Below, piece by piece: positions 4,393-56,300 of a stretch of DNA of 64,000 bases. The stretch is from positions 119,874-183,873 of IMG/VR virus record IMGVR_UViG_3300029615_000411. One strand, 5' to 3'. The notes beneath the pieces were generated by a model that made no database searches, was not told where the DNA came from, and worked only from the letters and a program-made list of their open reading frames with translations. A program made the translations under genes and the position numbers. Position 1 is the stretch's first letter. Each line of letters starts with the position of its first letter. This stretch comes from a virus. Taxonomy: Duplodnaviria > Heunggongvirae > Uroviricota > Caudoviricetes.

Positions 4393-4406
4393 CCTATTTA
4401 CTCCTT

Positions 4407-12345: not shown

Positions 12346-13509
12346 TTATTCAGCTGCGGCAGACCGCTCGTACACATCAATGCAGTAGTTGCCCATAATC
12401 TTGTTGTACATGCACTCCTGTGCCAAAGGACCTGCCCCATAGGTATCAACGGCGTTATCATAGTTACTGCCAATATAAGCTTTCACTTCATCGACAGACG
12501 GTTTATAGTCCTGTTCCTCTGCCAGATACTGCGCAACAAGGCTCAGTAAAACATTTTCTTCCGTCTGACTACGAAGACTTTCTGAATACTCCTCCGAGGT
12601 CTTATAATTGCTGTATGTCTGAACGAATGTCTCCAAGTCCATATTGTAGGCAGTTGCTTCGTTTTCGACATACTTCAAGTTGGTTTCAAGACTCAGGATG
12701 ACAAGGTCTGTCGTATCCTTTTTGAGTTTTACATTGTCAATGAAATACTGTTCAATCTCATTCTGAATCTTATTCATACGAAGATTCTCTTCAACATATT
12801 CACGAAGCAGGTCTACTGTAGTTACAGCAGTGCCGTCTTGCAGCTTGTAGCCACTCATGATACCGGCAACATCAGCATCTGTCATGCTATATTGAGAAAT
12901 TTTATTAAGCGTTACATGGAAAACAGCTTCCTTGTTGGCGAGTTCGATAGTCTGCTCGCCTGTAGTTCTATCTGTTGTACTGCTATATCCATCAGGGAAT
13001 GTTACCGTAACATCAAACGAATCCCCCGTGTTATGCCCGACGATTTGCTCTTCAAATCCGTCAATAAAGGTATTGGAACCGAGTTCCAAATCGTAGTCTT
13101 CTGTTGTTCCACCGGTAAAAGCAACACCATCAACCGTACCCTCATAGTCAATGTTCACAACATCGCCTTCCTGTGCGGCGCGGTCTGTTACCTCTGTCGT
13201 CAGCTTGTAATTGGACTGAAAATAATCCAACTCGCTTTGAATCTCCTCGTCTGTAACGGCGTATACATCTTTGCTGACCGTATACTTCTTATAATCCTTG
13301 GGCATCTTTATGTATTTGGACGCAGTCACATCACGAAAATACCCGTCATCATCAAGACCGAGGTCATACTCAACAGCGGAAGCTGTTTCGGAGGTGGCTG
13401 TTTCCGCAGTCTCAGATGCACTTGTATCGGCCGTATCTTTACTGCACGCGGTCAATGCAATACATGCAGCACTGATGACCGCCAGAATCATTTTTGCGTT
13501 TTTCTTCAT
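12346..13509 (-). CDS. lipoprotein with FKBP-type PPIase / trigger-factor-like domain; candidate extracytoplasmic foldase
   Basis: MKKNAKMILAVISAACIALTAC signal plus lipobox; GDVVNIDYEGTVDGVAFTGGT...LELGSNTFIDGFEEQIVGH is the trigger-factor/FKBP PPIase signature; AAAGGAG RBS. Confidence 0.65.
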   Translation of the reverse strand: MKKNAKMILAVISAACIALTACSKDTADTSASETAETATSETASAVEYDLGLDDDGYFRDVTASKYIKMPKDYKKYTVSKDVYAVTDEEIQSELDYFQSNYKLTTEVTDRAAQEGDVVNIDYEGTVDGVAFTGGTTEDYDLELGSNTFIDGFEEQIVGHNTGDSFDVTVTFPDGYSSTTDRTTGEQTIELANKEAVFHVTLNKISQYSMTDADVAGIMSGYKLQDGTAVTTVDLLREYVEENLRMNKIQNEIEQYFIDNVKLKKDTTDLVILSLETNLKYVENEATAYNMDLETFVQTYSNYKTSEEYSESLRSQTEENVLLSLVAQYLAEEQDYKPSVDEVKAYIGSNYDNAVDTYGAGPLAQECMYNKIMGNYCIDVYERSAAAE

Positions 13510-34307: not shown

Positions 34308-34351
34308 AAAAAGCCGAGCGGCTTATCACCGCTCGGCATCCCCATCACATA

Positions 34352-35913: not shown

Positions 35914-35952
35914 AAAGAATAGCGCCCCACAGATTTACCTGCGGAGCGCTAT
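35912..35952 (-). terminator. terminator after giant adhesin 1 (TAGCGC...GGCGCTA TTCTTTG)
   Basis: 7-bp stem, weak U-tract. Confidence 0.4.
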
Positions 35953-35991: not shown

Positions 35992-38900
35992 TTACTGCTT
36001 CTTTTCCTCGGTTTTATCCTCAGTCTTTTCAGCAGCTTTTTCTTCGCTATCGCCCTTCTTCTTCTTGACGATGACAAATGCGCCAACGCCAATCAGAGCA
36101 ACAACAACGATAACAGGAACGATGATGTCTGCGCCAAAACCAACGCCAGTCTTGTAGTTAACTACAACAGGTGCCGGAGTGGGAGCGGGTTCATTCTTAA
36201 CTACAGGAGTCGGAGTCGGTCTGCTTTCTTCCGGAGGATTCTCCAGCTTAACACTTGCTACCCGAACATCACCGTAGTTGCCTGCCTTATCGACTGTACG
36301 GGTCACAATGTAACCAGTCCAATCGGGACTCAGCTTGAAGGTAACGTAACCGTTGTCCTTATCAATGTTTGTGACATTGACAGTCTCGAACTTGGTTTCG
36401 TCGAAGGTGTAATCGCCCTTAGCACTCTTGGCAATAGCAGAACCATTGACCTTGTAATACTGAATCTTAGCGACACCGGAGTTGTACTCGCCATCCAGAG
36501 CGGAAATAGCAGGAACGGAATCCTTGACCTTTACAACAGGCACGAAGTCAGGGTCTTCGGTATCGTCCTTATCACCGTTTTCGTCGGGAGTAGCAACGCC
36601 ATCGTTACCGTTTTCATCACCGGTCTCGTCGCCGGTTGTGAAGAGAGCGGGCTTACCATGAGCAATACGAAGCGTAGTGGCTTCGGTCTTGTCATCGGTT
36701 GTTTCGGTCTTCTCGGACTCGCTGGGAACTTTCTCCTCGGTACCGGATTCGGTTTCATCCTTCTTGTCGGAATCTTCCTTCTTATCGGTATCGTCGGCAT
36801 CGTCCTTCTTGTCGTCTTCCTTCTCAGGTGCCTTGCCGGTCTCTTCACCAGTAATGAACACATTGATGGTGCTCTCGAACTTGACGAACTTCTCGTTCAG
36901 CAAATCTGTCTTATTGGTGGAATCAACCTTATCGGCAGCGAAAGCAGAAGCAACGACAGGAGCTTCGGTATCAACAGATGTGGTGATAGTTCCCATCTCG
37001 GTAATGGCACCGGTCTTCAGGTCAATCAAGTAATAGGTAGAAGTAACCTTCTCACTATTAGCGGAAATGACCATCTTCTCGGCCCACTCAGCATCGGTCA
37101 GGGAATCGCTGGTTCCGATTGCGTAACCCTTAGGAGCGATAACTTCAACCTCAGAGTTGAAGTACAGGTCACTCAGGTCATCAGTCGTCTTCTTGGTAAC
37201 CTCAACAGGCTTACCGGTCTTTTCGTCAGCCACAGTACCAACGATAGTTGCGGGTTCTACATCGGCAAGATGCAGACGCTGGACTTCGATGTCTCCGGTG
37301 GTAGGCAGGTAATTGTAGTTGTCGTAAGCGCCGCCAACATACTTGAAAGCGTCCTTCGTCAAGCCAACATTACCGAAGATACCATCGATGCTGGAAGCAA
37401 CAATGAGTTCGAAGGAAGGCAGCTTAACGGTTTCAGCAGTCTCGTCGAAAGCGTAACCACTGGTCTTGATTTCGGGAATCTCCGTCTTAGTGCCATACAG
37501 CTTGACGACGGGGTTCGGGTCGAGAGTAACCGTCAGGTCTTTACGAGCGATAACGAACTGACCATCGGCTTCGTTCTTATCGGCATCGACGACATTGATT
37601 GTTACTGCGTAATTCTGCTCAACAGCAGCATCGTAATCAGAGGTAACGGTGTAGGTGTAAGTACCAGCGTTCTTGACATTCTCAGTCTTGAACTGGCTGT
37701 CGCTCTCCACGCCGTCATCGCCGCTGGCGATGTCAGGAGTCAGAGTCGCCTTTGCATCAGCAGTCAAGGGAGCAGTCTGTGCATTGTCGGTGGTCTTATC
37801 GTTCTCGAAAGGAGTATAAACAAGTGCCATCTTCAGGCCCAGAGAATCAGGTTTGACAGCTGCACCGTGTGTACCGTCGCCATTGGTGGCAACAGCATTT
37901 ACGGTGAAGTCGGGGTTAGTGGTATCGCCATAGACGATATCCTTGGGCTCGGTGACAGTGACTTCGACCAGACGTTCGCCAATGGTATAAACGCCATTAA
38001 CAATCGTAATCAGGTAATCGTCATTGTCGTAAGAACCGACCATGTCGTATGCACCGTAATTCTTGACAGATTCGGGCACGCTCTCCGCAACCAGAGAAGC
38101 AGCACCGTCAGCAGACTTCATGGAAATCTCTTCGGCAACCGCATTCTCAACATCCTTCTGAGTGATGCTGATAATAGCTTTCAGGTCATCGCCATTTACG
38201 ATGGTCTTCTTATCGGCATCGCCAGTATAGGTAAGAGTATTGCTCAGTTCAGCCATTTCATTGCCGTAGACAGAACCAACAGTTCCGATGGTCCAAGTCA
38301 GAGGACGCTGAGTGACCGTGTAAGTGCCGTTCATAGCAGTTACTAGATAATCCTGATAAGAAGCCTGACCGACGCGGTGAGCCAGACCGGAGAAGGAAGG
38401 AACAATGTCATAGCCTCCGACATGGCTTGCAGAAGTGACGAGGCACAGGTTCGTGCCTTCCAGAATATCACCATTGACCAGAGCTGCCTTGGCAGTGTCA
38501 CCAGTGTATTCCAGAACGTTCACGGTACCGTAATCAGACCAATCTTCAACAGCAACATCGTCGCCATAGATAGAAGTCTGGGGTTTAGCGGTGACAGTGA
38601 TGGGACGCTTGTCGATAACAAAATCAACGGGAGCGTAAACAAAGGTGTAGTTGTTTGCTGCGGCATTCTCAACATTTGCAGGAACGACCTTGCCGGTACC
38701 AGCGTGAGAAGCTACCGTTGCGGGAGCTCCCTCAGCATCGGTAAAGTTGAAGGTCAGGTTTGCAATGCTCAGGACACCAGCATCATCGGGAGTGGTGTTG
38801 CCCTTGACGGGTTTCACAACGAATCCATCGAAAATCAGGTCATCGCCGGAGAGAACAGGGTTCTCATCGCCGTAAATCTTGCTCTGAGCTGCCAGAGTGA

Positions 38901-41900
38901 CATTCAGAGTAGCAGGAGTGATTTCGAAGGTGTTGTTTACGCGGGTGATGTTGAAGTTGACATCGTCGCCCTCGATAATCATCGGGTGCTTGCCGACATC
39001 TTCACCAGCATCGGTGCCAGCGTCAGGACGAACAACCTTCAGGTTTGCAAGGTCACCTGCATCTTCGCTTACATAGTAAGCGCCGTCGCCAGTTGCAGTC
39101 CAAGTCAGTTCGGGGTCAGCCTCGCCGTAGACCTTCTTCTGGCCTTCGTCAACAACCACGATTACATCGCGCTTATCGACATGCAGAGAACCATCAACAA
39201 AGACGATGGGGTCATAGTTCTTTGCGCCCTTGTTTTCCAGACCGCTCATGGTGATGACATAATCGCCAGCAGCAGGACGAGCAGGAATCTCGGACAGAGA
39301 ACCGTCAGCATTCTTGATGTTGTAGACAACCGAGCCAGTAAATGCGGAAGCAACGGTGTCATTGTTCTTCAAGCCAGTAACGGTGTAGCTGAACGTGGGA
39401 ACGGTGCCGCCATAAATCATGGAGTAACCGCCAGCCACGGTAAAGGTGACCTTAACGGGCTTGATGGTCAGAGTAGCAACTTCCAGAGCCTCGGGCTCAG
39501 TGGTGGAAGAACCAACGTCGACGGAAGTGCCGGAGCCAGTCACGATGGTGATGGCGTAGTTGCCGTACTTGTTGTACAGAGTAGAGCTGATGTGGTATTC
39601 ACCGACATCCTCACCGGCTTTGCGAGTAACAGAGCCGCTCAGAGCACCAGTAGTCAGTTCCAGCGTATTCTTCTTCAGACCATCGTTGGAAATGTTGCCG
39701 GAAATCTCGCTGTAAGAGAATGCGGGGTCTGCATCGCCGTAATCCTTCTCGTAGTTGGAGAAAGTCAGGGTGATGGGACGATGAGTGATGGTGATGGTAG
39801 AATCAATCACCGTCAGGTCGTAGTTGGCAGGCTGTGCGTAGATAGCTTTCAGAGCATAAGTGCCAACGCTTGCGGAAGCAGAAGTTGCACCGGAAGTCAG
39901 GGTAATGCCCTTAAGAATCTTTTCGGCTTCTGCTGCCTGAACATCAGTAGTAGTCAGCAGACCAGTGCCGCCCTTGATGTAATCCTTCACGTTCATAGAA
40001 GTGAGGGTCTCACCATAGGTCTTTTCGGTTTCAAGCAGGTTGATAACGGCAGTACGCTTATTGATGGTGAAGCGAACATCATTGGTGAAGCTGATACGAT
40101 AGTTCTTTGCCATCGTCTGCTCATAGATGTTACCGCTGTAAATCGGATAAGTGCCAGCGTTCTCGCCTGCTTCACGGCTCAGACGAGCCTGTGCGAAGTC
40201 GGCCTTGGGTTCTGCGAAGCTGGTGGTATTGTAGTCGAAGATGACATAGGTATCGTTGACTGCAAAGCTGGGGTCAGTCTCGCCGTAAGTCTTGGACAGG
40301 CCATAGCGAGGAGTGATGGTCAGGGGCATCTGATGAACAATCAGCATGTTCTTGCCATCGGGCTCAGACAGCTTAACGCTGTTTGCGGGCTGGTTATCCA
40401 GACGGAAGGTCAGGTTGTAAGAACCTGCATCGTACAGACCAGAAGCGTTCGCAGTAGCCTCAACGGCGATACGAACAACGCCCAGAGAAACATCCTTGCC
40501 GTCCATCTTGATGTTGACGGTTTCGCCATCGTGGTAAATCTGAGTGCCATCGGAGGTATTCACATTGACGGAAACTTCCTTGGCGATGGTATCGGGCTTC
40601 TTCTCACCGTAAGTAGTCTGCAGTGCGTTGAAGGTGACAGAGACATCAGCCTCGGTGACTTGGAACGTAGCCTGCGGGGCAATCGTTACGATGTAGTTGG
40701 GGTTCTCATCATAAGAGATGGTAGCCTCATAGTTGCCGACAACCGTAGTGGGGTCTTCCCACTTGGTCAGGTCGATGTGGATGTTCAGCGGGCTGCCCTG
40801 CGGGTCAACCACATTGATAGCCTGAGAACCGGTCTCGTCATACAGCGCATAGCTGGGGGTGTTCTTACCGGCAACGCCGTACTTACGGACGCTGTTGGTA
40901 GTACCCTTGATGGTGACAGGCAGTGCATTGATAGTCAGCGTACCGCTTGTACCATCGCTGTAAGTGCCGGTGTAAACGATGTTGTAGTTGGGGTTGGTGT
41001 AACCGGAAACAACAATAGGATAGGTACCAACACCAGTCAGCTTACCAACGGTATTGTCAACGCCATACTTGATGGTGACAGTGCCGCCCAGAGAAGCGAC
41101 GGTATCATGGATGCCAATTTCATCGTTGCTTGCGAAGTTCTTGTATTCCAGTGCGCCGGTAATATCGGCATCGCTGGGATTCTCTGCGCCATACAGACGC
41201 TCACGGTTCGGAACAGTGATGGTCAGAGTACGCTTGGTGATAGTGTACTTATCGGGAGCATTGAAGGTGATGTCGTAGTTCTTGGCGATTTCAGCAGTCT
41301 GGAACTGTGCATCGCTGTAAGCGTAAGAGCCAACAGTCTCGCCGACCTCACGAGTCACAACGCAGCCAGCAAAGTCGGAGCCAACACGGCCGCCCTTGCC
41401 ATTGACGGGGTCAAGAGTAAAGGCAACGCCGCCCTTGGCATCACTGTCGCCGTAAACCTTCGTCTGACCACCCATCACATTGATGGCGATAGGACGCTTG
41501 GTGACGGTCAGCTTGCTGTTGACAAAACGAACCAGATAGTTGTCGTAACGGTCGTAGTTCTTGCCATCGGCATTGGGGTCCCAGTCAGAAGACCAACGCT
41601 CCTGAGAAGCACCCTGCACAGATGCGCTGACGGTGTATTCGCCAACATTGGCAGTTGTAGGAGTGCCGCTGTTGCCAGCCGCATCTACCATAGTAAAGCC
41701 AAGCTTGTCCTCGGTCAAACCGATGCTTGCCTGTGTATCGTTCAGCTTGAAACCTTCGATGGATTTAATCTTGCCGGAACGAGCAGCGCCATACATTGCG
41801 GACAGGTCATCGAGAGTGACAGTCAGCATTGCAGGATGGATGATGTACTTGCTGTTGATGACCTTGACGTCATAGTAAGCAGTGCATGCAGGGGGAACTT

Positions 41901-43944
41901 CGACAGTCATCGGATATTCGCCAACATTCTTATTGTCGATATCCTGACGCTGTGTTGTCAGAACCATGCTGACCAGCTTGTTCACACCGTCATCAGCGGT
42001 GATGTCAGAACCGGCGACAATACGCTTGTCGGAGGCCACTGCCTGAGCAGCACCGTTATAAGCAACAGCGTCGAAGGTGATGGTGGAAGACTTGCCCTTT
42101 TCAGCCTCACCATAGATGGCATCAATCTGGTCATTGGTGATGGTTACGTTACGCTTGGTAATTTCAAACGTTGCGGTAGCAAGGTTGATGTTATAACCAT
42201 TGATAGGCGCATTCGTCTGGATATTGCCGATTGTAACAGTGTAGCCACCGGGAGCAGAGGTGATGCTGGGCAGAACAACGGTGGGTTCACCGCTCAGACC
42301 AAGCATCTCTTTCAGAGCAACTGTGTTGGACTTGTGCTCGTTGTTGGTCTTATACTCGAAATTCGTCTTATCGGTATCAGACCAGCCGGTAATCACGAAG
42401 TCAACCTGAGGATTCTGCTGACCATACTGACGAGTGGCTTTGCTGCCGGTCGTCTGTACGCCATCATTGCCCTTGAAGACAAATACAGGAGTCAGGGTCA
42501 GAGTCTTTTCAGAAACGACAACATACACATCGCCGGTATTGGGCTGAATGTCGATGTTGTAGTTTGTGTTGCTCTTCGCGGAGGAACCTAAGATGATTTT
42601 GTAAGAACCGGTAGTGTCCTTATCAAAGTTCTCTGTGGTCAGAACATCCGCAGGAAGCAGGTCGCCGTCAACCAGACCACCATTGGTGTCCATGACTGTG
42701 TAGTTAATCTGGCTGATGGTATTGCCCTTCGTAACATAAGTGGTATGAGGGACAATGTAAATCTGACGCTTGTTGATAGTCACGCCCGTGTCATTGCGGA
42801 TATCCTTAGAAGAATCCAAGTTGGAACCGTCAATGATGGTGTAATTCAGACCATTCACAGTAACGCTTATGGCACCTGTATCAACATAAGTCGGATAAGT
42901 ACCGGCATTGCAATGAATGTCTGTGGGATTCTGGCCGTCGCCGTCAGCCGGAGCGTACATAATGAAGCTCAGACCGTCGATAGCTGCCTGAATATCCTTT
43001 TCGACTTCCTGAGAAGTACGGGAATCAGCAGTGCTGTATTCGATGGTCAGACCCTTAGACTTGAAGGAGTCACCGTATGTGTAGGTAACAGTCTGAGGCA
43101 GAATGTGAATAACATTCTCCTGACCGCTAATCTTGGTATACTGAATACCAGTGCCTGCGGCAATCTGCTTACCAGTCTCAGCAGCGGTGATTGCCTGATA
43201 GTCCCCGATGACAGTCGTAGAACCGCCGCCATCAAACGCGCTGGCACCGCTGTTGTCTACGGGGTTTTCCTGACGGTCGCAAACCTGCAGATACAGGTCA
43301 GACATATCAAGGTATGCACTCATGACGGGCTCGGCGACCTGCTCATCCTCGCTCAGAGAATAATACATGTCCTCAATGGGTTCCCAGTCATAAACTGCAT
43401 CCAATTCCTCAGTGCGACGCGTGACCATCGCATCAAGAACCGCATTTTCCTTGTCAGCCTGCCATGCCTTGCTTGCAAGACCGAAGTTGTTTGCAGCAGT
43501 CAGAATTTCATCTTTACGGCTTACAAGGGCGTTAGCCGCATCGATAAATGCCTGTGCTGCTTCACTGATGCTGCCAGTGGTAGAAGCTTCGCTGGAAGTG
43601 CTGGTGCTTGCACCAGTATCAGAGGCAGCACTGTTTGCGTAGGCAGTGGTCGTTTCAGACCCCGCCTGACTTGTAGCCTCAGAAGAAACATCGCTCGTCA
43701 CAGAAGTGTCGCTGGACGCGGAACTTGCTGTGTCGGTAACATCGCTTTTCGGCGCGGGAGTAGTAGCGGAAGAGTCGGAGTTTGTTGTCGTAGTGCTGAG
43801 TGCATCAGTTTCCTTCGGAGCTTCTTCACTCTGCGTGATTCCACTCGCGCTCTCCACTGCATAAGCAGTGACAGGAGCAAACTGAGACAGGCACATTGCT
43901 ACGGCGACAATCGCACTCAAAAACCGCTTACGAGGTTTCTGCAT
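35992..43944 (-). CDS. giant secreted cell-wall adhesin (2650 aa): signal peptide, S/T-rich N-terminal region, many MBG-like repeat modules, C-terminal NYKTG sorting signal
   Basis: AGGAGGG RBS before ATG 43944; signal peptide MQKPRKRFLSAIVAVAMCLSQFAPVTAYA; recurring YG...KVYGD.DP...NY.IT repeats; ends NYKTG + TM + KKKKGD. Confidence 0.8.
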   Translation of the reverse strand: MQKPRKRFLSAIVAVAMCLSQFAPVTAYAVESASGITQSEEAPKETDALSTTTTNSDSSATTPAPKSDVTDTASSASSDTSVTSDVSSEATSQAGSETTTAYANSAASDTGASTSTSSEASTTGSISEAAQAFIDAANALVSRKDEILTAANNFGLASKAWQADKENAVLDAMVTRRTEELDAVYDWEPIEDMYYSLSEDEQVAEPVMSAYLDMSDLYLQVCDRQENPVDNSGASAFDGGGSTTVIGDYQAITAAETGKQIAAGTGIQYTKISGQENVIHILPQTVTYTYGDSFKSKGLTIEYSTADSRTSQEVEKDIQAAIDGLSFIMYAPADGDGQNPTDIHCNAGTYPTYVDTGAISVTVNGLNYTIIDGSNLDSSKDIRNDTGVTINKRQIYIVPHTTYVTKGNTISQINYTVMDTNGGLVDGDLLPADVLTTENFDKDTTGSYKIILGSSAKSNTNYNIDIQPNTGDVYVVVSEKTLTLTPVFVFKGNDGVQTTGSKATRQYGQQNPQVDFVITGWSDTDKTNFEYKTNNEHKSNTVALKEMLGLSGEPTVVLPSITSAPGGYTVTIGNIQTNAPINGYNINLATATFEITKRNVTITNDQIDAIYGEAEKGKSSTITFDAVAYNGAAQAVASDKRIVAGSDITADDGVNKLVSMVLTTQRQDIDNKNVGEYPMTVEVPPACTAYYDVKVINSKYIIHPAMLTVTLDDLSAMYGAARSGKIKSIEGFKLNDTQASIGLTEDKLGFTMVDAAGNSGTPTTANVGEYTVSASVQGASQERWSSDWDPNADGKNYDRYDNYLVRFVNSKLTVTKRPIAINVMGGQTKVYGDSDAKGGVAFTLDPVNGKGGRVGSDFAGCVVTREVGETVGSYAYSDAQFQTAEIAKNYDITFNAPDKYTITKRTLTITVPNRERLYGAENPSDADITGALEYKNFASNDEIGIHDTVASLGGTVTIKYGVDNTVGKLTGVGTYPIVVSGYTNPNYNIVYTGTYSDGTSGTLTINALPVTIKGTTNSVRKYGVAGKNTPSYALYDETGSQAINVVDPQGSPLNIHIDLTKWEDPTTVVGNYEATISYDENPNYIVTIAPQATFQVTEADVSVTFNALQTTYGEKKPDTIAKEVSVNVNTSDGTQIYHDGETVNIKMDGKDVSLGVVRIAVEATANASGLYDAGSYNLTFRLDNQPANSVKLSEPDGKNMLIVHQMPLTITPRYGLSKTYGETDPSFAVNDTYVIFDYNTTSFAEPKADFAQARLSREAGENAGTYPIYSGNIYEQTMAKNYRISFTNDVRFTINKRTAVINLLETEKTYGETLTSMNVKDYIKGGTGLLTTTDVQAAEAEKILKGITLTSGATSASASVGTYALKAIYAQPANYDLTVIDSTITITHRPITLTFSNYEKDYGDADPAFSYSEISGNISNDGLKKNTLELTTGALSGSVTRKAGEDVGEYHISSTLYNKYGNYAITIVTGSGTSVDVGSSTTEPEALEVATLTIKPVKVTFTVAGGYSMIYGGTVPTFSYTVTGLKNNDTVASAFTGSVVYNIKNADGSLSEIPARPAAGDYVITMSGLENKGAKNYDPIVFVDGSLHVDKRDVIVVVDEGQKKVYGEADPELTWTATGDGAYYVSEDAGDLANLKVVRPDAGTDAGEDVGKHPMIIEGDDVNFNITRVNNTFEITPATLNVTLAAQSKIYGDENPVLSGDDLIFDGFVVKPVKGNTTPDDAGVLSIANLTFNFTDAEGAPATVASHAGTGKVVPANVENAAANNYTFVYAPVDFVIDKRPITVTAKPQTSIYGDDVAVEDWSDYGTVNVLEYTGDTAKAALVNGDILEGTNLCLVTSASHVGGYDIVPSFSGLAHRVGQASYQDYLVTAMNGTYTVTQRPLTWTIGTVGSVYGNEMAELSNTLTYTGDADKKTIVNGDDLKAIISITQKDVENAVAEEISMKSADGAASLVAESVPESVKNYGAYDMVGSYDNDDYLITIVNGVYTIGERLVEVTVTEPKDIVYGDTTNPDFTVNAVATNGDGTHGAAVKPDSLGLKMALVYTPFENDKTTDNAQTAPLTADAKATLTPDIASGDDGVESDSQFKTENVKNAGTYTYTVTSDYDAAVEQNYAVTINVVDADKNEADGQFVIARKDLTVTLDPNPVVKLYGTKTEIPEIKTSGYAFDETAETVKLPSFELIVASSIDGIFGNVGLTKDAFKYVGGAYDNYNYLPTTGDIEVQRLHLADVEPATIVGTVADEKTGKPVEVTKKTTDDLSDLYFNSEVEVIAPKGYAIGTSDSLTDAEWAEKMVISANSEKVTSTYYLIDLKTGAITEMGTITTSVDTEAPVVASAFAADKVDSTNKTDLLNEKFVKFESTINVFITGEETGKAPEKEDDKKDDADDTDKKEDSDKKDETESGTEEKVPSESEKTETTDDKTEATTLRIAHGKPALFTTGDETGDENGNDGVATPDENGDKDDTEDPDFVPVVKVKDSVPAISALDGEYNSGVAKIQYYKVNGSAIAKSAKGDYTFDETKFETVNVTNIDKDNGYVTFKLSPDWTGYIVTRTVDKAGNYGDVRVASVKLENPPEESRPTPTPVVKNEPAPTPAPVVVNYKTGVGFGADIIVPVIVVVALIGVGAFVIVKKKKGDSEEKAAEKTEDKTEEKKQ

Positions 43945-44371: not shown

Positions 44372-47300
44372 TTATTCAGCGGAATCATCCTTATGGTTAT
44401 CTTTGTTGTCGTTTTCGTCCTTCTTGCGCTTGTGGTTTACTACCACCAGAGCAGCGACGCCAATGCCAACCATTGCTACCAGACCAACAATGCTCTGTGC
44501 AAATCCGATACCCGTCTTCTTGTTGCTCGTGAAGATAGAGAAGAGGGAGAAGGGTTTGCCGTCTACCTTGAAGATATCGAGCCATCCAATCGGCGGGGTC
44601 GGAGTAGGCTTCGGGTTGTCAGGAGTCGGAGTAGGCTTCGGGTTGTCAGGAGTCGGAGTCGGCTTAGGCTCGTCAGGCGTTGTGGGAGTAGAGGGCTTCA
44701 CAACAGGGACTTTCACCTCGTTGGAAGGTTTCTCTACATCTTCATCAATCGGCTTGGACGGGTCCTTACCATGACCCGGATTCTCGGGGTCTTCGGGATT
44801 CTGACCCGGAGCCTTAGCGACAGCCACGTTAATGACATCGTGTCCGGCATCCGCGTCAACGGCAACATAAGAATAGGTCAGAGTGAAGGATTCGCCAACA
44901 GGGATACGAACAATAGTGAACGTTGTCGTTGCGCTATTGTAAGTATATTCATCACCGTTCTGGGCTTCAATATGGCTTGCGCCGTCATTGTTGTCCTTTA
45001 CGGTTACATTGACAAGGTCTACTTCACCGGTATTGGTTACTACCACACGATAATTGATGGTTTCACCGACATTGACTTTCGTCTTGTCAGCACTCTTCAC
45101 AATCGTGAGGCTCTTTTCGAGCGGAACATCCGTTTCCGTACCGGAACCCGGAACTTCCACATCGACCTTGTTGGACGGAATATCCGTATCAGGGTCAATC
45201 GGTTTCGTCGGGTCTTTACCCTGTCCGGGATTCTCCGGGTCTTCGGGGTTCGTACCGGGAACATGAATCGTCGCTACGTTTTCAAGAATGTGCGTAGTCA
45301 CATCGGCGATACCGACAGTATAAGCGTAGTGGACAACCACATCGCCGCCAGCAGGAATCGTGTCGATGGTGAATACACCATTCTCATAGTGATAACCAGC
45401 GCCATCCACTGCGAAAATGCTTCCGGAGAAGTTATTCTCATCAGTCAGAGCAGCATTCTGAATATCGTGGTCTTTGCCATTGTGTACCGTTACGGTATAG
45501 GTGACAGTCTCACCCGGCTTTGCGACAGTCTTGTTTGCAGACTTCCAGATGGTGACAACGCCATCATCAGGCTTCTTCACATCGACTGTATTGGACGGGA
45601 TATTATACTGCTCGCCATCGTGCGTGTACTTAATGGTTGCGGTATTTTCCATAACGCTCTCATCGGTCGTCTCTACCGTATAGGTATAAACGATATCAAG
45701 AGCCTCACCGGCATCCAGATAACCGATAGTCCAAGTGCCGTCTCCGTTATAGGTATAGCGGTTAGAACTCTCAGCCGTAACATCACCCGCAAAGTTGTTA
45801 TGGTCTGCGACAGTGATATCGTTTACGGTTTCATCTGTCGTGTTCTTCACCGTAATGGTGTAGGTCACAACATCCGTTACCTTAGCAATATACTTATCGG
45901 CATCCTTTTCAACATCGATAGGCGGTGTCGGGTCTTTCACAACAGCAGCGTTCAGAACCTTAGGAGCATCAGCGGTAACTACCACATAGGTGAAGTTAAG
46001 CGTTACGCTCTCGCCAGCCTTTACAGTGCTGATGGTATAGGAGTTGTCGCCGTTATCCGCAACGCCATCCATGGGCACAAAGTTGAGCGTTCCGTTGCCA
46101 TCGAAGAAGTCTTCGACCACAACATTTTCCGCATCAGCCTTGCCTTTATTGGCGACAGTAACCGTATAGTTGAGCGTATCGCCAACCTTGGCCTCTGCCT
46201 TATCAACGGACTTGGTGATTTCGATTACAGGAATCTCTGTTTCGGTTTCAGAGCCGGGAACTTCCACATCAACCTTGTTGGACGGAATCTCCGTATCGGG
46301 GTCAATGGGTTTCTCGGGGTCTTTGCCGTGACCCGGATTATTCGGGTCTTCGGGATTCGTGCCGGGAACATGGATTGTTGCAATGTTTTCGAGAATCTGC
46401 GTGGGCACATCAGCAATTTCAACCGTATAGGTGTAGTGGATAACCACATCACCGCCTGCGGGAATCTTATTGATTGTGAATTCGCCGTTCTCGAAGGTGT
46501 AATCTGCACCTTCAACGCTTACGATTTCGCCAGCAAAGTTGTTGGTGTCTGTCAGACGAGCGTTTTCGATGTCGTGATTCTTTCCGTTATGAACCGTGAC
46601 GGTATAGGTTACAACCTCACCCGGCTCAGCCTTTGTCTTATCTGCAGCCTTGCGGATGGTGACAACACCATCATCGGGCTTCTCGACATCGACGGGGTTG
46701 GACGGGATATTGTAATCTGTGCCATCCTTGCTGTAAGTCACATTTGCAATGTTTTCGATGACGGTGGCATCCTCAGCCTGCATCGTATAGGTGTAGGTGA
46801 TATAGATGGTCTCGCCAGCGGCAATAGTCGGGATAGTCCACGTCTTATTGCCATTGTAAGTGTACTTGTCAGCGTTTTCGGCCTTGATTTCGCCCTTGAA
46901 GTTGTTAGTATCGGTGACAGTTACATTGTCAACAGACTCAGAAGTGGTGTTCTTCACGGAAATCGTGTAGGTTACAACCTCATCAACCTTTGCAATGTGC
47001 TTGTCGGCTTCCTTCTCGACGTCAACAGGCGGTGTCGGGTCTTTGATTACTGCGGCGTTCAGTACGAGAGGTTCGTCTCCTTCAACTACAACATAGCTGA
47101 AACGAAGCTTTACGCTCTCCCCTGCCTTGACCGTAGAAATAGTGTAGGTGTTGTCTCCGTTATCTGTCACACCATCCATGGCCTTGAAGTTCAGCGTTCC
47201 GTTTCCGTCAAAGAAGTCCTTAATCAGGATATTCTCAGCATCCGCGTTACCGCCGTTCTTGACAGTGACGGTGTAGTTTAGCGTATCACCAATCTTGGCA

Positions 47301-50300
47301 GTAGGCTTATCTACAGACTTGGTAATAGAGATTTCCGGAATCTCGGTCTCAACTTCGGAACCGGGGACTTTCACTTCGACCTTATTGGACGGAATGTCCG
47401 TATCGGGGTCAATAGGTTTATCCGGGTCCTTGCCGTGTCCGGGATTCTCAGGGTCTTCCGGATTCGTGCCGGGCACATGTGCCGTGGCAACATTTTCCAG
47501 AATGTGAGTGGGTACATCTGCAATCTGCACCGTGTAGGTGTAGGTCAGAACAGCGTCTGCACCAGCAGCAATCTTATCGATTACAAAGTGTCCGTCAACG
47601 AACTTGTAGCCGACACCATTCGTGCCGGTAATCGTTCCAGCAAAGTTGTTGGAATCGCTTACGACCACATTGGTGATGTCATGCGCCTTGCCGTTGTGAA
47701 TCGTAACCGTGTAGGTCACGACCTCACCGGGTTCTGCAATCTTCTTGTCACCGCTCTTGACAATCGTAACTTCGCCATCCTTCGGGACAACGACTTCAAC
47801 GGGGTCTGCCTTGATGACATACTCGCCGTCATCGGTCGTGTAGCGAACATCAGCTTCGTTGACCAGCGTAGAGGGGTCGGTAGTCTTCACCGTATAGGTG
47901 TAGAGAATATCGATGCTCTCACCAGCCTTGATGCTGGGGATAGTCCAAGTATGGTTGCCATTGTAGGTGTACTTGGCGTTGTCTTTAGAAGTGATTGCAC
48001 CTGTAAAGTTGTTGGTGTCGCTGACCAGCAGGTCGGTAACGGTCTTATCAGTCGTGTTCTTCACCGTGATGGTGTAGTTGACGACTTCATCGACCATCGC
48101 TACATGCTTGTCTGCGGTCTTCTCGATGTCAACGGGAGGCGTCGGGTCTTTCACAACAGCAGCGTTCAGGACCATCGGCGCATCTCCGGCAACGACCGTG
48201 TAAGTGAAGCGGAGCGTAATGCTCTGACCCTTCTCCACATTCGCAACCGTGTAGGTGTAATCACCGTTATCCGTCACACCGTCCATCGGAACGAAGTTCA
48301 GGACACCGTTACCGTCAAAGAAATCCTTAACGACAGCGTTCTTGACTGCCTGTCCGCCAACATTCGTCAGCGTAATCGTGTAGTTCAGCGTATCCCCAAC
48401 CTTGGCTTCTGCCTTATCTACACTCTTAACGATTTCGAGCTTGCCTTCCGGCACATCAACATGCGTGCCGTCACCGGGAACCTCAACATCGACCTTGTTG
48501 GAAGGAATCTCCTCGTCAGGGTCGCCGGGGTTCTTGCCGGGAACGTGAGCCGTTGCAATGTTTTCAAGAATCTTGGTCGGAACATCGGCAATCTGGACTG
48601 TGTAGGCGTAACGGACCACTGCGTCACCGCCAGCAGGAATCTTGTCAATGACAAATTCGCCGTTGGTGAACTTGTAGCCAGCGCCATCTACGCCTTCAAT
48701 CTTGCCCGCGAAGTTGTTCGCGTCAGTCAGACGGACATTCTTGATGTCGTAATCCTTACCGTTGTGAATCGTAACCGTATAGGTAACGACCTCGTTCGGC
48801 TCAGCCTTGGTCTTGTCGGCAGTCTTAAAGATGGTAACGACACCATCGTTAGGCTTTTCGACTTCGACGGGGTTGGACGGAATATCGTAGTCAGTACCGT
48901 TGTAGCTATAACGCACATCGGCAGTGTTTTCAATGACAGTTTCATCGTTTGCCTGCATCGTATAGGTGTAGGTAATGTCGATGGACTTGCCGGATTCGAG
49001 CGTTGCGATGGTCCAAGTCTTATCACCGTTGTAGGTGTAGCCCTTGCCATCTTTGCCTTCGATTTCGCCCTTGAAGTTGTTCGTATCGCTTACCAGCAGA
49101 TTCGTCAAGGTGTCCTTGGAATTGTTCTTCACCGTAATGGTGTAGGTAACAATCTCATTAACCTTAGCGATATGCTTGTCTGCGCTCTTCACAATATCCG
49201 TGGACGGTTTGGGAGTTGTGATGACTGCCGCGTTCAAAACCTCAGGCGCGTCTCCGTCAACTACCACATAGGTGAAGTTGAGCGTTACGCTTTCGCCAGC
49301 CTTGACGCTTGCAATCGTGTAAGTGTCATCACCGTTATCGGTGACGCCATCCATAGCCACGAAGTTCAGTGTGCCCTTGCCGTCGAAGAAGTCCTTGACT
49401 GTGACATTCTCAGCATCGCCCTTGCCGTTGTTCTTGACAGTAATCGTGTAGTTCAGAGTATCACCGACAGCGGCTTCACTCTTGTCTACACTCTTCGTCA
49501 GAACAAGGTCAGGAATCTTGGTTTCAGTTTCGGAACCCGGAACCTCAACATCGACAGGATTCGAAGGAATCTTCTCATCGTTATCGATAGGCTTATTCGG
49601 GTCTTTACCGTGACCGGGGTTGTTCGGGTCTTCGGGATTCGTTCCGGGAACATCAGCCGTAGCGATGTTTTCCAGAATCTGAGTAGGCACATCACCAATT
49701 TCAACCGTGTAGGTGTAGGTCAGAGTGACCGAAGCGCCTGCGGCAATCTCAGCGATATGGAACTCGCCGTTCTCGAAGGTGTAATCTGCGCCGTCAACGC
49801 CAGTGATTTCACCAGCGAAGTTATTAGCATCGGTTACTACAACATCGTGAACATCGAAGCCCTTGTTGTTAGTAACGGTGACATTGTAGGTGACGACCTC
49901 ACCCGGCTTAGCCATCTTCTTGTCCGCTTCCTTGTGGATGGAGACAGTGCCCTTATCGGGTACGACCACATCGACAGTCGGCGTATCAAGCTTAACGGTA
50001 TTACCGTTCTCGGAATACGTCACATCAGCCTTGTTCTCGAGGAGCTTCTCATCATTGCTCTGTACCGTGTAGGTATAGGTAATGTCGATGGTCTCCCCTG
50101 CTCCGATTTCCGGAATCGTCCAAGTATTATCGCCGTTATAGGTGTACTTGTCTGTATTGGCGGCATTGATGCTGCCAACAAAGTTATTGGTATCCTTGAC
50201 AGTGACATTCGTCTTTGCCTTGGTATCGGGGTTATACACGCTGATGGTGTAGGTCACGATTTCATCGACAAATGCGAACTTCTTGTCAGCCGTCTTGGTG

Positions 50301-53300
50301 GGTTCGAGCGGCGGGTCAACGGGCGGCGTCGTGACGACAGCGGCGTTCAGGACCTCAGGCTCATCGCCTTCCACGATAACATAGGTGAAGCGGAGCTCCA
50401 TGAATGTACCGGCAGGCAGTTTGTTGATAGTGTAGGTGCCATCACCGTTTACTACAACACCGACAGTCGGGATGTAGTTGAGCTTGCCGTGTCCATCGAA
50501 GAAGTCTTCGACCAGAATATTTTTCAGTTCGCCATCGCCAACATTAGACACCTTAACGGTGTAATGCAGCATATCGCCAACAGAAGCACTCTTCTTGTCT
50601 ACGAATTTCTCGACTTTCAACTTGCCCTCGGGCGGGTTGACAGGAACAGGTACATCACTGCCGGGAACCTTGATGGTGACCTCGTTAGAAGGCTTCGTCT
50701 TTTCATTCTCAGGAGTCTGGTCTTCGTCAGCGAACCAGTAATGCAGCGTAGCCACATTCTTCAGCTCGTTGTAAGTATCCTGACCCTTACCGGCATCGGT
50801 GTTCAGCACAATGTAATCATACTCTACCGTGACAGTCTTGCCAGCCGGAATAGTGCCGACCTTGATGACTGCGGAACCGGCAGATGCAGATTCCAGAGTA
50901 CCGTTCTTGACATTCGTGATAACGCCGTTGAAGTTGTTCTTGTCGTGCAGCGCTGCATTCACATAGTCAACAGTGTCATTGTTGTGCATGACGACGGTGT
51001 AATGCACCGTATCGCCGATGTTTGCAATGGCCTTGTCTGCCTGTTTTACAACGGTGGGTCCGACATGTTCCGGCGTGGGAGTATCGGGGATGACAGGGAT
51101 ATCAACCTCATTGGAAGGAATCTTTACCTTGCCGGAATCCGTCACATATGTCATTTCGGCGTTATTGACAAGCATGGTATTGGGAGCATCTTCATTCATT
51201 ACCGTGTAGGTGTAGACAATGTCTACGCTCTCACCAGCGCCGATAGAAGAAATATTCCAGACCTTGTCGCCAATATAGCTTACAACATCAGTGTTTTCGG
51301 CAGGTGTGATAACGCCCGTGAAGTTGTTCGTATCCTTGACCTCAACATTCGTCTTGGTCTCGTTAGTCGTATTGGTAACGGTAATGGTGTAAGTCACCAC
51401 CTCGCCAACCACTACGGTCTGTTTATCTGCCTTTTTCTCGATTTCGGGAATTTCCGGAATCTCGACAGCAGCATTGTTTACGGTGCCCTTGTCGCCTTCT
51501 TGTACGGTATAGGTGACAGGAATCTCAACGACCTCACCAGCCGCAATCTCTGCGATGGTGAAGGAATGAGTCGCTGCGTCATAGGTGTACTTGTCGGAAC
51601 TTGCAGCATTGATTTCACCAATGCCGTCATTGAAGTCGCGTACAACTACATTCTGAGCAGTCATTGTACCGTTGTTGGTAACGGTAATGGTGTAGTGAAT
51701 GGTATCGCCAATCATCACGCTGGATTCAAGAGAAGTCTTCACAACGCGAATATCGCGGTCAGGCACTTCGCCTACATGGACAGTCTCAGTATCGGGGTCG
51801 CTCGTAACAGTCTTGTTGTCGGGGTTCTTGCCCTCAGCAACAGCCGTATTCACGATGTTACCGTTATCGAGGTTCATGTCCTCTGCCACAGCAGTATAGA
51901 CATAAGTGATTTCAACGGAATCGCCTGCGTTCAGCTCAGGAATCATCCACTTGCCGTTTCCGTCATACATCAAATCGCCAGTGTACTCGACAGTGCCGTT
52001 GCCGTTGGATGTATCGGTAACGATAACATTCGTCAGCTTGGTATTGCCGCTGTTCTTGACGGTCAGAGTATAGGTTACGGTCGTGTCATTGCCGTTCATA
52101 TCAACGAAGCTCTTGTCAGCGTTCTTTACGATGGTCAGTTCATCACGGAGCACATCAACCTCAACAGGCTTAGAAGGCTCTTCGATGTCCTTGTCACCCG
52201 GAATCTCAGTATCGGGATTCTTGGGAGCGTGAGCAGTAGCTACGTTGATAATCGTTTCGGGGTCACCGTTCTGCACAATATACAGGTAATTCAGAGTAAC
52301 GGAATCACCGACATTCAGAGCAGGAATGGTGAACAATCTGGTTTCGGGGTTATAGGTATATCCGTCGCCGGTAGAGACGATAAACATACCCAGAGCATTG
52401 GTGTCATCGGAGACGGTAACATTCGTCATATCGACAGTGCCGTCGTTCGTGACAGTGACCTGATACTTGACGACTTCGCCGGGATAAGCGTGGTCGCGGT
52501 CAGCAGACTTGACAATCGTCAGGTGCTTGTAGTACAGCGGCACGATTACTTCGTTGGAATCGACAGGTTTTTCAGGAATAGTCGGGTCTTCGCGAGCAGG
52601 AATCGTTGCGGTAGCAATGTTATCCAGCTTGCCGTTTGCGAGGTCATCTGCGACAACCGTGTACTTATAGGTAATGGTTACGGACTTTCCAACGCCAAGG
52701 CTGGTGATTGTCCATGTTCCATCATCGTTGACACGATAGCCGAAGTGGAGCTTCGTGTTCTCGACAGGCTCGCCCATGAAGTTGCTCGTATCCTTTACGA
52801 CAACATTTTCAAGCTTCGTGTTGCCCGTATTGGTGACTTTCAGCGTGTAAGTGACGACATCACCTACGCCAGCCTCAGTCTTATCAGCACTCTTTTCGAT
52901 GGTCAGATTCTGACGGATGATTTCCACATCAACATCAGGAGTCTCGACCAACCAATCCTTGTTAGGCTCGGTATAGTTCGGAGTCGTGCTGCCATCAGGG
53001 TTTTCAGTATAACTCTCGACTACCTTCATATCGGTAATCTTGGCGTTGTTTTCGAGGATGTCGTTGTTGTTGGTGCCGTGGTCGGTCGGGTCTACCGTGT
53101 AGGTATAGGTGAACGTTACAGCATTGGTATGGGTTTCATCGCGCAGATGGGAAATCTCTGCGATAACGAACTCGCCCTTCTCTGCATCATAGGTCACACC
53201 GTTTGCCTGAGACAGGGCAGGAACACCAACGAAGTTGTTGGTATCTTTAACGATGACGTTGTGCAGGTCATGACTGGTCGCGTTCGTAACGGTAATCGTG

Positions 53301-56300
53301 TAGCGAATCACATCGTAATCCGTAGCGCGTTCACGGTCAGCAGATTTCTCGATAGAGACAATTTCCTTATCGCGAACGGTCAGAGTACCATCCACATACT
53401 TGATGATGTAGTTGGCATTGCTGCCGCTGCCATCTTCTGTGTTGATGATAACTGCATCGCTGGGAACGTTCTTGCTGGAACCCACTTCGGTCTGAGAACC
53501 GGTTACGGTCACAGAATCCATCTTATCGTGAATGCCAAGCAGGTCGTTATCTACGAGTTCCGGAGCGTAGGTATAACCGGGTTCCGTCAACGGAGTGCCG
53601 TCATATACCTTTTCTGCGGAGTTTGCAGTAATGGTTACCTCACGCGGGTCAATGAAGAAATGTCCGGGAGTTACTGTGCCAATCTCAATATTATCTACCT
53701 CTGTATAGGTAGGAACAATGGAATAGCCGGGGTTCTCGGTACGAACATTCTCACCCGGAACACGAGCTGCATCCAGATTCAGGGCACGGTCGATATAATC
53801 GCGCAGGTCCTTATCCGGAGTGTAAGGCTCATCTTTCTCGTTCGTGAGCGTATAGGAAACATTGAACTTATCGGGGTCGTTATCACCGTAGGTCTTGCGG
53901 TCGTCTTCTGCCTTGATGTTAATAATCAAGGGTTTGACGGTCAACTTACCATCGATGTAAACGAAATCGTAGTTCGGGTTATGGAAAGTAGAATCCTTGG
54001 CAGATACAGGATATTCACCAACAGGGCTCCACTTCTCCGCATCAGTCTTGGTCTTGAGCGCATCTTTACCACCGATATCATCGATGGTGTCGCCGCGCTT
54101 ATAGCCGGTAATGGTTACGTTGGGTGTCGGGTTATCTTCGCCGAAATACTTTTCGTCGTCAATAACTGTAACAACGATGGTTGCAGGAACAATGGTCAGA
54201 GTTCCGGGAGTGGTAATGATTTCGTAGTTGCCGGACGGGTCAGTGCCATCAATGGTGATGGGATACTTGCCTACCTGCTCACCGTCATCAGTATCAGCGC
54301 CGGGACGCTTTGTGGTGATATCGAAGAAGTCTTCGTCACCGGGATTGACCAGTTCTTCGGGGTCAGTAATCGTCCAAGTCAGCGGGTCGGGGTCTTTCTC
54401 TCCGTAAACCTTCTGCTGGTCATCTGCCTTCACATGGATAGGTTTCTTACCAATCGTCAGGTCACCGCCAACATAGATAAACTTGTAATTGCCGTTGTCA
54501 GCAACCAACTGCTGTCTATCGTAGTTGATGGGATAATTACCAACTTTCGTCTTATTCGTTACGGGATTGCCAGCGTTATCGTTGCAGTACATTGTAGCAG
54601 TGCCGGAAACCTTGGATTCATCGTCCTTGATACCGGTACCTGTCTCGTCCTTAACATCACGACCGACAAAACCTGTGATGGAATAAGTGAATTCGGGAAT
54701 CTCATCGCCGTAGGTGGTCTTGTATCCGCCATCGACCGTAACAGTGAGCGTTGCGGGGATGATTTTCAGAGAACCATCGTATACGGTAACGGCATAGTTC
54801 TTGTTGTTTGTATCGTACTTTGCGGAAATGAGGTAATCACCATCATAGAGGGTAGTTCCCCACTTATTGAGAGAATCTGCTGCAGTGACATCGCCGCGCA
54901 CAACATTCTCACCCTTGGTGCGGTACAACTCAACATTCAGCGGGCTGTTTTCGGGGTCAATCAGGCCAATCACATTGCCAGCATTGTCTTCGTAATGGAA
55001 GGTAAATGCCGGGTCAGCAGTGCCGTAGGTCTTGACCTTATGGTCAATACGAACAATCAGTTCCTTCGGGTTGACAGTGATATCGCCATTGACATAGCGG
55101 ATAACATAGTTCTTCTCGAAGTTTGTGTTGCTCTTGACTTCGAAAGTGGAGCCGATATGCTCTTCACCGTCTTCCAGAACAACGCAATCCGGGTTCACCG
55201 CATCCTCATTGTTGTTGCCAGCAGTTACGATGTACTTGCCAGCGTCAGACAGGTCGAAGCACAGAGTAGCGAAGCCAAGTTCACCGTTCAGAACGGTTTC
55301 CTTCGTGTCATCACGCTTGAAGCCGGTAATATCGGCATCAAATGCGGGATTCTCTTCGCCATAGGTCTTGGAATAGCCACCCTTTACGGTAACAACCAGC
55401 TCAGCCGGAGTAATCGTAAAGTTGCCGTTCTCCATGGTAATAACGTAGTTGGTGATACCATCCTTGCTGACAGGGCTGATATCGTTGGCGTTGATGGCGT
55501 AAGCCTTGCCAAACGAATGCTCGCCAGTCCAGACATCCTCACCGGGTTCACGAGTCACGCCAGTACCTTCGAGGTCGCCGGGCTGGACAGGCACATCCGC
55601 GCCTTCCTTCTCGGTGAGAACGGGACCGTTTGCGTACTCAATGTAGTAGTTGCCATCTTCGCCACGGACACCGTCATGGAGCGTGTACTTCAATTCGGGG
55701 TCAGCGTCGCCGTAAACCTTGGTGTTATCCTCAGCAATAACGGAAACGGGGCGAGGAATGATAGTCAGGTTGCCAGCGGTAATCGTGATGTCATCATCAT
55801 CATAGATGGTGCTGTGGACACCGGACAGGCTGATGCAATCCTTGTAAGTGCCGCTGGAGCTGGTCTGTGTATCCAGATGGGTAAAGGTAAAGGAATTGGT
55901 GTTGATACCGGCTTCCTCTGCCGTGATTTCAACAGCCTCGCCGTTTTCTACCTTAAACACATGATAGGTGTAATCGGTAGAACCATCGTAGAAGCGGTTG
56001 ACACGGTCGCCGTAATAGCGAACCTTATCATCCACGGTAATCATCAGACCCTGACGCTTGACAATGAGGTCGTTTGCGTAACGGTACTCAAAGTCGTAGT
56101 TCGGGTTATCCAGCTCAAGCTGTTTCTGGTCGTTTGCTGCGAGGTTTCCAATCTGACGGTCCTGCGGCGTGGAGTAGACGGGATAAGAACCGACTTCTTC
56201 ACCCTCTGCACGAACCAGATTGAAGACGATGGGAACCTTATCGGGGTTCACAACAACGCTTGCATCCGTGATACGGCTGCCTGCGCCGAGCTTCTGCTGA

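Follow-up and report, generated by a model that had tools for sequence, protein, structure and literature searches.

The giant surface proteins and their C-termini

We analyzed a stretch of DNA of 64,000 nucleotides, referred to as the window (positions 119,874 to 183,873 of the IMG/VR virus record IMGVR_UViG_3300029615_000411), that fits the published description of the Hodor megaplasmids of the human gut. The window carries the gene of a giant surface protein, giant protein 1, directly preceded by that of a second and even larger one, giant protein 2, and it also encodes a class B sortase together with components of a Sec translocation channel. Our subject is the C-terminus of giant protein 1, which is probably a class B-type cell wall sorting signal. 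Coordinates refer to the window, and all genes and features given lie on its minus strand (−).

Giant protein 1, the presumed substrate carrying the signal, is encoded at 35992..43944. Within the open reading frame 35992-44007, the likely start is the Met codon at 43944, which gives a product of 2,650 amino acids by translation, and the last sense codon ends at 35995 as read from the bases. The protein contains MBG_2 (YGX-type) repeats in five stretches (Pfam MBG_2, E = 9.8e-49). Its N-terminal segment MQKPRKRFLSAIVAVAMCLSQFAPVTAYA (43858..43944), followed by VE, has a basic n-region, a hydrophobic core, and an AxA motif, and judged by inspection of the translation, it is a Sec-type signal peptide with probable cleavage after AYA (AYA|V); an earlier reading of the sequence alone had come to the same view.

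At the other end, the protein reads PAPVVV-NYKTG-VGFGAD-IIVPVIVVVALIGVGAFVIV-KKKKGD-SEEKAAEKTEDKTEEKKQ up to the stop codon, as seen in the bases and their translation. The pentapeptide NYKTG, the proposed sortase B recognition site, lies at 36145..36159, exactly where the sequence-only reading had placed it. It is followed by the post-motif block VGF with the spacer GAD (36127..36144), by the hydrophobic core IIVPVIVVVALIGVGAFVIV of 20 residues (36067..36126), which is predicted from hydropathy to span the membrane and which NYKTG precedes by 6 residues, by the basic stop-transfer cluster KKKK (36055..36066), and by the tail GDSEEKAAEKTEDKTEEKKQ of 20 residues (35995..36054), which is presumed to be cytoplasmic. 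The mean Kyte-Doolittle hydropathy of the IIVPVIVVVALIGVGAFVIV region is 3.14 over its best 19-residue stretch. A hydrophobic segment of 23 residues had been described between VGF and KKKK, and this was borne out, with one Asp among the 23 residues. The motif had been said to sit 50 residues from the C-terminus; indeed, 50 residues follow its G, and its N lies 55 residues from the stop codon. The description of the end as KKKKGD plus an acidic tail stood in its first part only. KKKKGD is present, but the tail is of mixed charge, with 9 K/R and 8 D/E after the membrane core.

The motif at the C-terminus is NYKTG and not a canonical LPXTG. Contrary to the earlier statement that the protein has no LPXTG anywhere, an LPTTG is found internally at 37294-37308 (residue ~2213, 438 residues from the stop codon), and the relatives P0003 and P0006 also hold an internal LPTTG or LPATG. 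This LPTTG is not a sorting signal, because no hydrophobic segment lies downstream of it. Of the features of a sortase substrate, giant protein 1 does have a signal peptide (by inspection), a pentapeptide ending in T-G, and a hydrophobic segment with two or more basic residues after it.

A matching tail is present in giant protein 2, whose gene (44372..64000) is the immediate upstream neighbor of the giant protein 1 gene. The N-terminus of giant protein 2 lies beyond the window; in the source contig, the protein has 7,321 amino acids. Pfam finds ~22 DUF11 repeats within its last 3,000 residues, MBG_2 was recorded in the relative P0057, and the full-length relative P0054 (7,323 amino acids) starts with the Sec-type signal peptide MQKGKTWQRVASAVLAVMMTMSTFSSTIAYA followed by AE (by inspection). 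Giant protein 2 ends with FTS-NKKTG-IGF-AQS-IVGLVAMVGIGVAALVVV-NHKRKK-DENDNKDNHKDDSAE, and its predicted sorting signal (44375..44524) starts 50 residues from the end. When the two tails are aligned, N, K, T, G, G, and F are identical. In their real frames, the two giant genes contain TG[VI]G only three times, and the copies followed by F are the two C-terminal ones only. Since giant protein 2 shares the tail, TG[VI]G-F is confined to the C-termini, and the block is kept in the variants described below, the pattern goes beyond chance.

Strong terminator-like hairpins follow both giant genes (35919-35952 and 44329-44358, with 15- and 13-bp stems and T runs), and a near-consensus promoter (35884-35912; TTGACT-17-TATAAT with a TG, 11/12 matches) comes after the first hairpin. 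In contrast to these hairpins, the gene for the >7300-aa protein has been reported to be cotranscribed with its three downstream neighbors (PMC12934698).

A divergent class B sortase in a row of secretion genes

The presumed partner enzyme is encoded at 11363..12334. It was located via orthologous loci, in which an open reading frame ending with VLILSTCSG...TRFIVCAKL comes just after the genes for SecY and a trigger factor-like protein; the regular expression [TS][LVIMF].[TS]C misses the window copy because of its I-L-S-T-C reading. Judged by profile matches, catalytic triad, and modeled fold, the product of 323 amino acids is a divergent class B sortase. It is composed of an acidic cytoplasmic N-terminal extension of 66 residues (20 D/E and 6 K/R in residues 1-66), a membrane anchor (predicted helix 69-96, with a charge-free hydrophobic stretch from residue 67), and a catalytic domain with His209, Cys303, and Arg312. 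In the closest relatives of the enzyme, 33-73 residues precede the membrane helix, compared to 4-8 in distant and canonical relatives. When 27 relatives are aligned, the triad residues H209 (IFGHS), C303 (LSTCS), and R312 (TRFIV) show no variation, and they correspond to the catalytic residues in an alignment with 5b23. Furthermore, the enzyme matches SrtB chains in the PDB (Clostridium perfringens, Listeria monocytogenes, Clostridioides difficile, and Staphylococcus aureus) with E values down to 5e-12. The catalytic domain of the AlphaFold2 model is mostly above 90 pLDDT, and a Foldseek search of this model against the PDB returned class B sortases at ranks 1-19 (E = 1e-15 to 5e-11), with class A sortases starting at 2e-7. 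A helix (residues 269-282) lies between the strands preceding the catalytic Cys in the model, as expected for class B. Pfam reported no match for the window sortase, which is therefore assigned to a divergent subfamily; the orthologue at locus L005 scored 30.9 bits against Pfam Sortase (cutoff, 26.6).

Members of this subfamily are also found in other contexts. A relative with 42% identity (loci L015/L016; a contig of GCA_020047415.1 and SRR11235433) is encoded upstream of two Peptidase_M73 (camelysin/TasA-like) genes and of the gene for a protein of >2,100 amino acids, which runs off the contig. Relatives with 38-51% identity are encoded on a 345-kb gut contig (L011) and a 127-kb termite gut contig (L013), where the neighbors include DNA polymerase III alpha, a topoisomerase, a sigma-70 factor, a RepB-type primase, and Band_7, and where SecY is not adjacent. 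It may be that further giant elements, including some from outside the human gut, carry this subfamily.

In the window, the sortase gene is the last of a minus-strand row in the order SecY, SecG-like protein, SecE, foldase lipoprotein, and SrtB. SecY (14084-15424) is well supported (Pfam E = 1.1e-86; TIGR00967, 330 bits, above cutoff) and scores as a standard SecY, the accessory SecY2 type reaching only 146 bits versus a cutoff of 249.6; the window showed neither SecA2 nor Asp genes. SecE (13566-13817) scored 33.4 bits, also above cutoff, and the match of the SecG-like protein (13814-14068) is weak (18.8 bits) but covers the full length. The fourth gene (12346..13509) encodes a trigger factor-like FKBP protein with FKBP_C and Trigger_C domains, for which the ribosome-binding N-domain was not reported. 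Its N-terminus is the lipoprotein signal peptide MKKNAKMILAVISAACIALTAC, followed by S. By its sequence, this "trigger factor" looks like an extracytoplasmic, PrsA-like foldase rather than a cytosolic chaperone, and it probably acts as an extracytoplasmic chaperone that serves the giant proteins. An identical gene order occurs in Hadza gut contigs as well as a third, diverged group of the element. In this third group, both giant genes with the signal are present on one contig of 77,628 bp (L066), and the longest contig with the P0020 sortase likewise has 77,628 bp. Hence, the sortase and both giant proteins were present in all three groups of the element examined.

Downstream of giant protein 1, the gene at 33124-34329 encodes a membrane protein of 401 amino acids that ends with a membrane segment and an acidic tail (GFVGFSKDSRKEEDSEDSEET). 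It is followed by a gene for a FloT-like flotillin (31224-32759; E = 1.7e-77, under the equivalog cutoff). It is possible that the flotillin and the 401-aa protein are linked to the membrane organization of an export module. Other genes in the window encode a ParM/Alp7A-like actin (24209-25318), a Dam-type methyltransferase (29037-29555), a PIN7 nuclease (8385-9095), a radical SAM protein (3628-4413), and a DUF1281_C protein (5390-6187); most of the remaining open reading frames are without a family match.

Conservation and interpretation of the signal

Variants of the signal were collected from related IMG/VR and human gut metagenome contigs and by an exhaustive profile search. Giant protein 1 ends with NYKTG-VGF, QAPTG-VGL, or NYKTG-VSL, and giant protein 2 with NKKTG-IGF (in two groups), NKQTG-IGF, or NWKTG-IGF. 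The seven diverged variants have the pattern [N/Q]-x-x-T-G-[V/I]-[G/S]-[F/L] in common, in which the block [V/I]-[G/S]-[F/L] adjoins T-G in every case, and in all of them the motif is followed by a membrane segment, a K/R cluster (KKKGGKK, RRK, NHKRKK, or KKR in variants other than that of giant protein 1 in the window), and a charged tail. The motif had originally been read as VNYKTGVGF. It is the general pattern that is conserved and not this full string.

T-G is invariant across the seven variants and across 97 sequences compared within groups, some of which are the same contig from two collections. Within groups, the 8-residue block has no variable column, whereas spacer, membrane segment, basic cluster, and tail vary. 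In the three groups with any variation, 167 C-terminal columns could be compared, of which 24 belong to the block and 143 to spacer, membrane segment, cluster, and tail; 21/143 columns are variable outside the block and 0/24 within it (the chance of finding none at the rate of 21/143 is ~0.02). The support that this invariance lends to a signal is modest, because the compared sequences are related. Between the two main groups, giant protein 1 is 86% identical overall; the linker before the motif is identical in 7/24 positions, the pentapeptide in 2/5 (T and G only), and the membrane core in 16/20.

Known class B sortases provide the frame for these motifs. Class B motifs start with Asn, as in NPXTG, NPQTN, or NPKTG (PMC11987632), and Listeria NAKTN is a class B motif without proline (PMC8225981). 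SrtB of C. difficile cuts SPKTG and PPKTG at T|G (PMC4155245), and QVPTGV is the signal for the class B enzyme SrtC2 of Streptococcus pyogenes, as given in the title of a 2004 paper by Barnett et al. that PMC7900414 cites. Class A sortases recognize LPXTG (PMC11987632, PMC8225981). A study of Bacillus anthracis found that residues on both sides of the pentapeptide matter, and the conserved [V/I]-G-[F/L] block fits this finding. We assign the signal to class B, because no variant has L-P and the leading N/Q, the K/Q at position 3, and the T-G match class B; because the window and the fetched flanks revealed no further candidate substrate or sortase; and because SrtB and both giant proteins are common to both Hodor groups.

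Taken together, a sorting signal outside the LPXTG type, as the sequence-only reading had supposed, with T|G as the point of cleavage, is supported by a candidate partner enzyme in the window, by motifs within the class B range, by the invariant block, and by the co-occurrence of sortase and giant proteins in three groups. We therefore consider it reasonably probable that the C-terminal 55 residues in giant protein 1 and the C-terminal 50 in giant protein 2 form a class B-type cell wall sorting signal and that both proteins are anchored in a SrtB-dependent manner. By analogy with the known chemistry of sortases, we infer that the sortase acts on the giant proteins, that T|G is the cleavage site, and that the products are linked to the wall, with SecYEG and the foldase in supporting roles. 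In this model, the giant precursors would cross the membrane via Sec, perhaps using the SecYEG-like channel that the element itself encodes, and the lipoprotein foldase might assist their folding outside the cell. The hydrophobic segment and the K/R cluster would retain the C-terminus in the membrane, where the SrtB of the element would cut between T and G of [N/Q]-x-x-T-G and pass the threonine carboxyl group to a peptidoglycan precursor, resulting in a covalent linkage to the wall of a Gram-positive (Bacillota) host.

However, a number of observations weigh against this model. The pentapeptide is without proline in six of the seven variants. All seven have a mixed-charge tail of 21-31 residues after the membrane segment, and because of this tail, the motif lies outside the range of 17-45 residues from the C-terminus that has been used as a criterion in substrate searches (PMC4155245): the motif starts 50-62 residues from the end, with 62 in giant protein 1 of the other group, and a short basic tail is not found. 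Between groups, the tail of giant protein 1 is identical in 15/19 positions, with an 8-residue insertion, and is about as conserved as the folded domains, which is unexpected under cleavage, since a cleaved tail would be a discarded peptide. None of the NCBIfam sorting signal models reached its cutoff on giant protein 1: TIGR01167 (LPXTG_anchor) scored 13.7 bits versus 15.9, on the membrane part only, and among the models listed at E <= 1, none was for a class B signal. The sortase itself matches the NCBIfam class B model TIGR03064 with E = 5.7e-22 and 78.2 bits, under the cutoff of 153.75, and its gene lies ~24 kb from that of giant protein 1. The Hodor plasmids also encode a class A sortase elsewhere (PMC12934698). 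Moreover, neither NVQTG nor NPQTN was cleaved in vitro by the SrtB of C. difficile, so an N-initial motif is no guarantee of cleavage.

The foremost alternative is a permanent type I membrane anchor, in which the C-terminus would stay uncleaved, the K/R cluster and the tail would remain in the cytoplasm, and TG-[V/I]-G-[F/L] would serve as a membrane-interface or partner-binding element. The absence of proline in most variants and the retention of the tail in every group keep this explanation a live rival. It is also in line with the higher identity of the tail than of linker and pentapeptide, with features of the membrane segment such as IGVG/VGIG that are kept, and with the acidic tail of the membrane protein encoded at 33124-34329 in the same gene row. 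Against it stand a sortase B conserved beside the giant proteins in every group examined and the nature of the residues that do not vary, which are precisely T-G and, three positions upstream, N/Q, in the manner of class B signals; within groups, the block is invariant while membrane segment and tail vary. In addition, a single helix holding a 7,300-residue protein outside a thick Gram-positive wall appears mechanically less plausible than a covalent link. On balance, we regard an uncleaved anchor as unlikely, at perhaps a third of the weight we give to the sorting signal. If the signal is cleaved, the enzyme could still be another one, either the class A sortase reported for the plasmids or a sortase of the host, with the linked SrtB serving other substrates. 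The distance between the sortase gene and giant protein 1 would be in keeping with this, as would those SrtB relatives with 38-51% identity that occur in contexts without SecY or giant genes in view. A class A enzyme, on the other hand, recognizes LPXTG, and L-P is present in none of the seven variants, whereas a leading N/Q is a hallmark of class B. Neither the window nor the fetched flanks showed a further protein with a candidate signal, and the two Hodor groups have few genes in common, SrtB and both giant proteins being among them; processing by a different sortase is therefore improbable in our view.

It is also imaginable, though very improbable, that the C-termini belong to another sorting system (exosortase, archaeosortase, or rhombosortase) or that the likeness of the motifs reflects nothing else than shared ancestry of paralogous tails. 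The layout of motif, membrane segment, and basic cluster is indeed common to several sorting systems, and the Loki-CTERM model gave 16.1 bits, but this is under its cutoff of 19.9 and covers the membrane segment and KKKK only; no CTERM model reached its cutoff. The signals of these other systems end within a few residues of the basic cluster, no such processing enzyme was seen in the window, and the motif block is invariant in the 97 sequences. How easily such layouts recur is illustrated by the tail profile, which also caught an unrelated membrane protein of 44 residues. This candidate (P0058, loci L021/L022; INPATGVDF...KKRKK, E = 3.5e-4) was dropped as spurious, because it is a complete chromosomal protein (MEVINIINPATGVDFSNEIIIAGIALVVLIGVGILSVVLKKRKK) and not the tail of a surface protein, despite its NPATG-like string; it is a warning on calls made from patterns only. 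A profile of the tail only (A1) in a word-indexed protein search gave 47 candidates, none of which scored.

The charged tails, the acidic N-terminal extension of the sortase, the acidic tail of the 401-residue protein, and the presence of an own SecYEG and a flotillin gave rise to a further idea, which we put forward as a long shot. The element may maintain a private export-and-sorting microdomain, in which the tails route the giant precursors to its own translocon and sortase or time their release. In an extreme version, the giant proteins may stay tethered to the membrane, and the motif would have another role.

The element and its relation to known systems

A protein identical to giant protein 1 is encoded on a human gut contig in ENA (k119_69034; 231,880 bp), and contigs of the element of 231,880, 345,980, and 389,222 bp were found in Hadza and other human gut assemblies. 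The mean GC content of the window is 46.7%. These data fit the Hodor elements, conjugative megaplasmids of the human gut with sizes of 211-389 kb and GC contents of 44.6-47.1%, described in a preprint of February 2026 (PMC12934698). Hodor encodes a class B sortase within a region of a hypothetical protein, SecY, SecG, SecE, and trigger factor, as well as a conserved pair of giant proteins with MBG domains, one of 7309-7704 aa and the other of ~2642 aa. The few genes common to both Hodor groups include SrtB and this pair. The giant proteins are described as "putative sortase-anchored," with a signal peptide and a sorting motif, a membrane helix, and a positive tail, and the preprint leaves open whether they are processed by class A or class B sortase (PMC12934698). 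Matched by description, the element is alike in contig size (232-389 kb), the GC content of the window, a ParM-like gene, the row of Sec and sortase genes, the 7,321- and 2,650-aa giant proteins with MBG domains, and its origin from the human gut; the window fits Hodor at every point tested. Where Hodor is marked by Rep_3, ParA/ParB, and type IV secretion genes, the window contains only the ParM/Alp7A-like gene.

The membership of the record in IMG/VR had suggested a huge phage. This reading was dropped in favor of the megaplasmid reading of PMC12934698. PHROGs, searched with ten window proteins, gave one family of unknown function and no phage structural genes. A megablast search of 25 kb against PLSDB plasmids and INPHARED phages returned no match, and an alignment of the C-terminal domain against GTDB species genomes revealed no relative. 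The size of ~350 kb had also brought the Inocles of oral Streptococcus (PMC12340149) into consideration. These are extrachromosomal elements of Gram-positive bacteria of ~350 kb that likewise have their own sortase and candidate substrates. Unlike the element studied here, with its GC content of 47%, they have a GC content of 24-32%, a class A sortase, and LPXTG-like motifs, and "SecY" does not occur in the main text of PMC12340149; identity with an Inocle was rejected because of GC content and sortase class.

The prediction of sorting signals for the giant proteins is thus already published (PMC12934698). The main text of that preprint does not assign the signal to class B, and it mentions neither the long tail nor the flotillin; the word "lipoprotein" does not occur in it. 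What is added here is the motif across groups, the assignment to class B together with fold and triad of the enzyme, the atypically long tail, and the lipoprotein nature of the foldase, and the remaining value lies in the specific assignment of an enzyme to a motif. If the signal functions in this way, a conjugative megaplasmid of human gut Bacillota has equipment of its own for adorning the wall of its host cell, consisting of translocon, foldase, sortase, and the two giant surface proteins, and this would probably alter the adhesion of the host and perhaps also the spread of the plasmid. The repertoire of class B would then gain a signal, N-x-K/Q-T-G-[V/I]-G-F, that lacks proline and has a long tail. 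Standard predictors would miss such a signal, because they seek LPXTG-type patterns 17-45 residues from the end.

Among characterized systems, the class B signals of heme uptake, NPQTN in S. aureus IsdC, NPKTG in B. anthracis, and NAKTN/NPKSS in L. monocytogenes, share with the element an initial Asn, a Lys or Gln in position 3, and a Thr in position 4, as well as a subsequent hydrophobic segment and basic cluster, and in both cases the gene of the cognate or presumed cognate class B sortase lies in the same locus or element. As NAKTN demonstrates, proline can be dispensed with (PMC11987632, PMC8225981). The substrates are different, with repeat proteins of 2,650 and 7,321 residues here versus small NEAT domain heme binders there. 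Furthermore, position 2 is Y, K, or W in the element, a conserved [V/I]-[G/S]-[F/L] follows the G, the tail has 21-31 residues compared to a few, and the enzyme is under the family cutoff and has an acidic N-terminal extension of 66 residues.

The signals of S. pyogenes SrtC2/Spy0129 (QVPTG(V), EVPTG, and VPPTG) come close to the QAPTGV of giant protein 1 in the other group, which is one residue off QVPTGV, and Spy0129 (3psq) is among the top fold matches of the element's sortase (E = 1e-12). In contrast, SrtC2/Spy0129 mainly polymerize pilins and need SipA, whereas neither a pilin-type lysine motif nor a SipA-like gene, for which no search was made, was seen here, and the copy of giant protein 1 in the window has NYKTG and not QAPTG. 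C. difficile SrtB, which recognizes (S/P)PXTG, is a general anchor for adhesin-like proteins, and its structures 4ux7 and 5gyj are top fold and sequence matches of the sortase described here.

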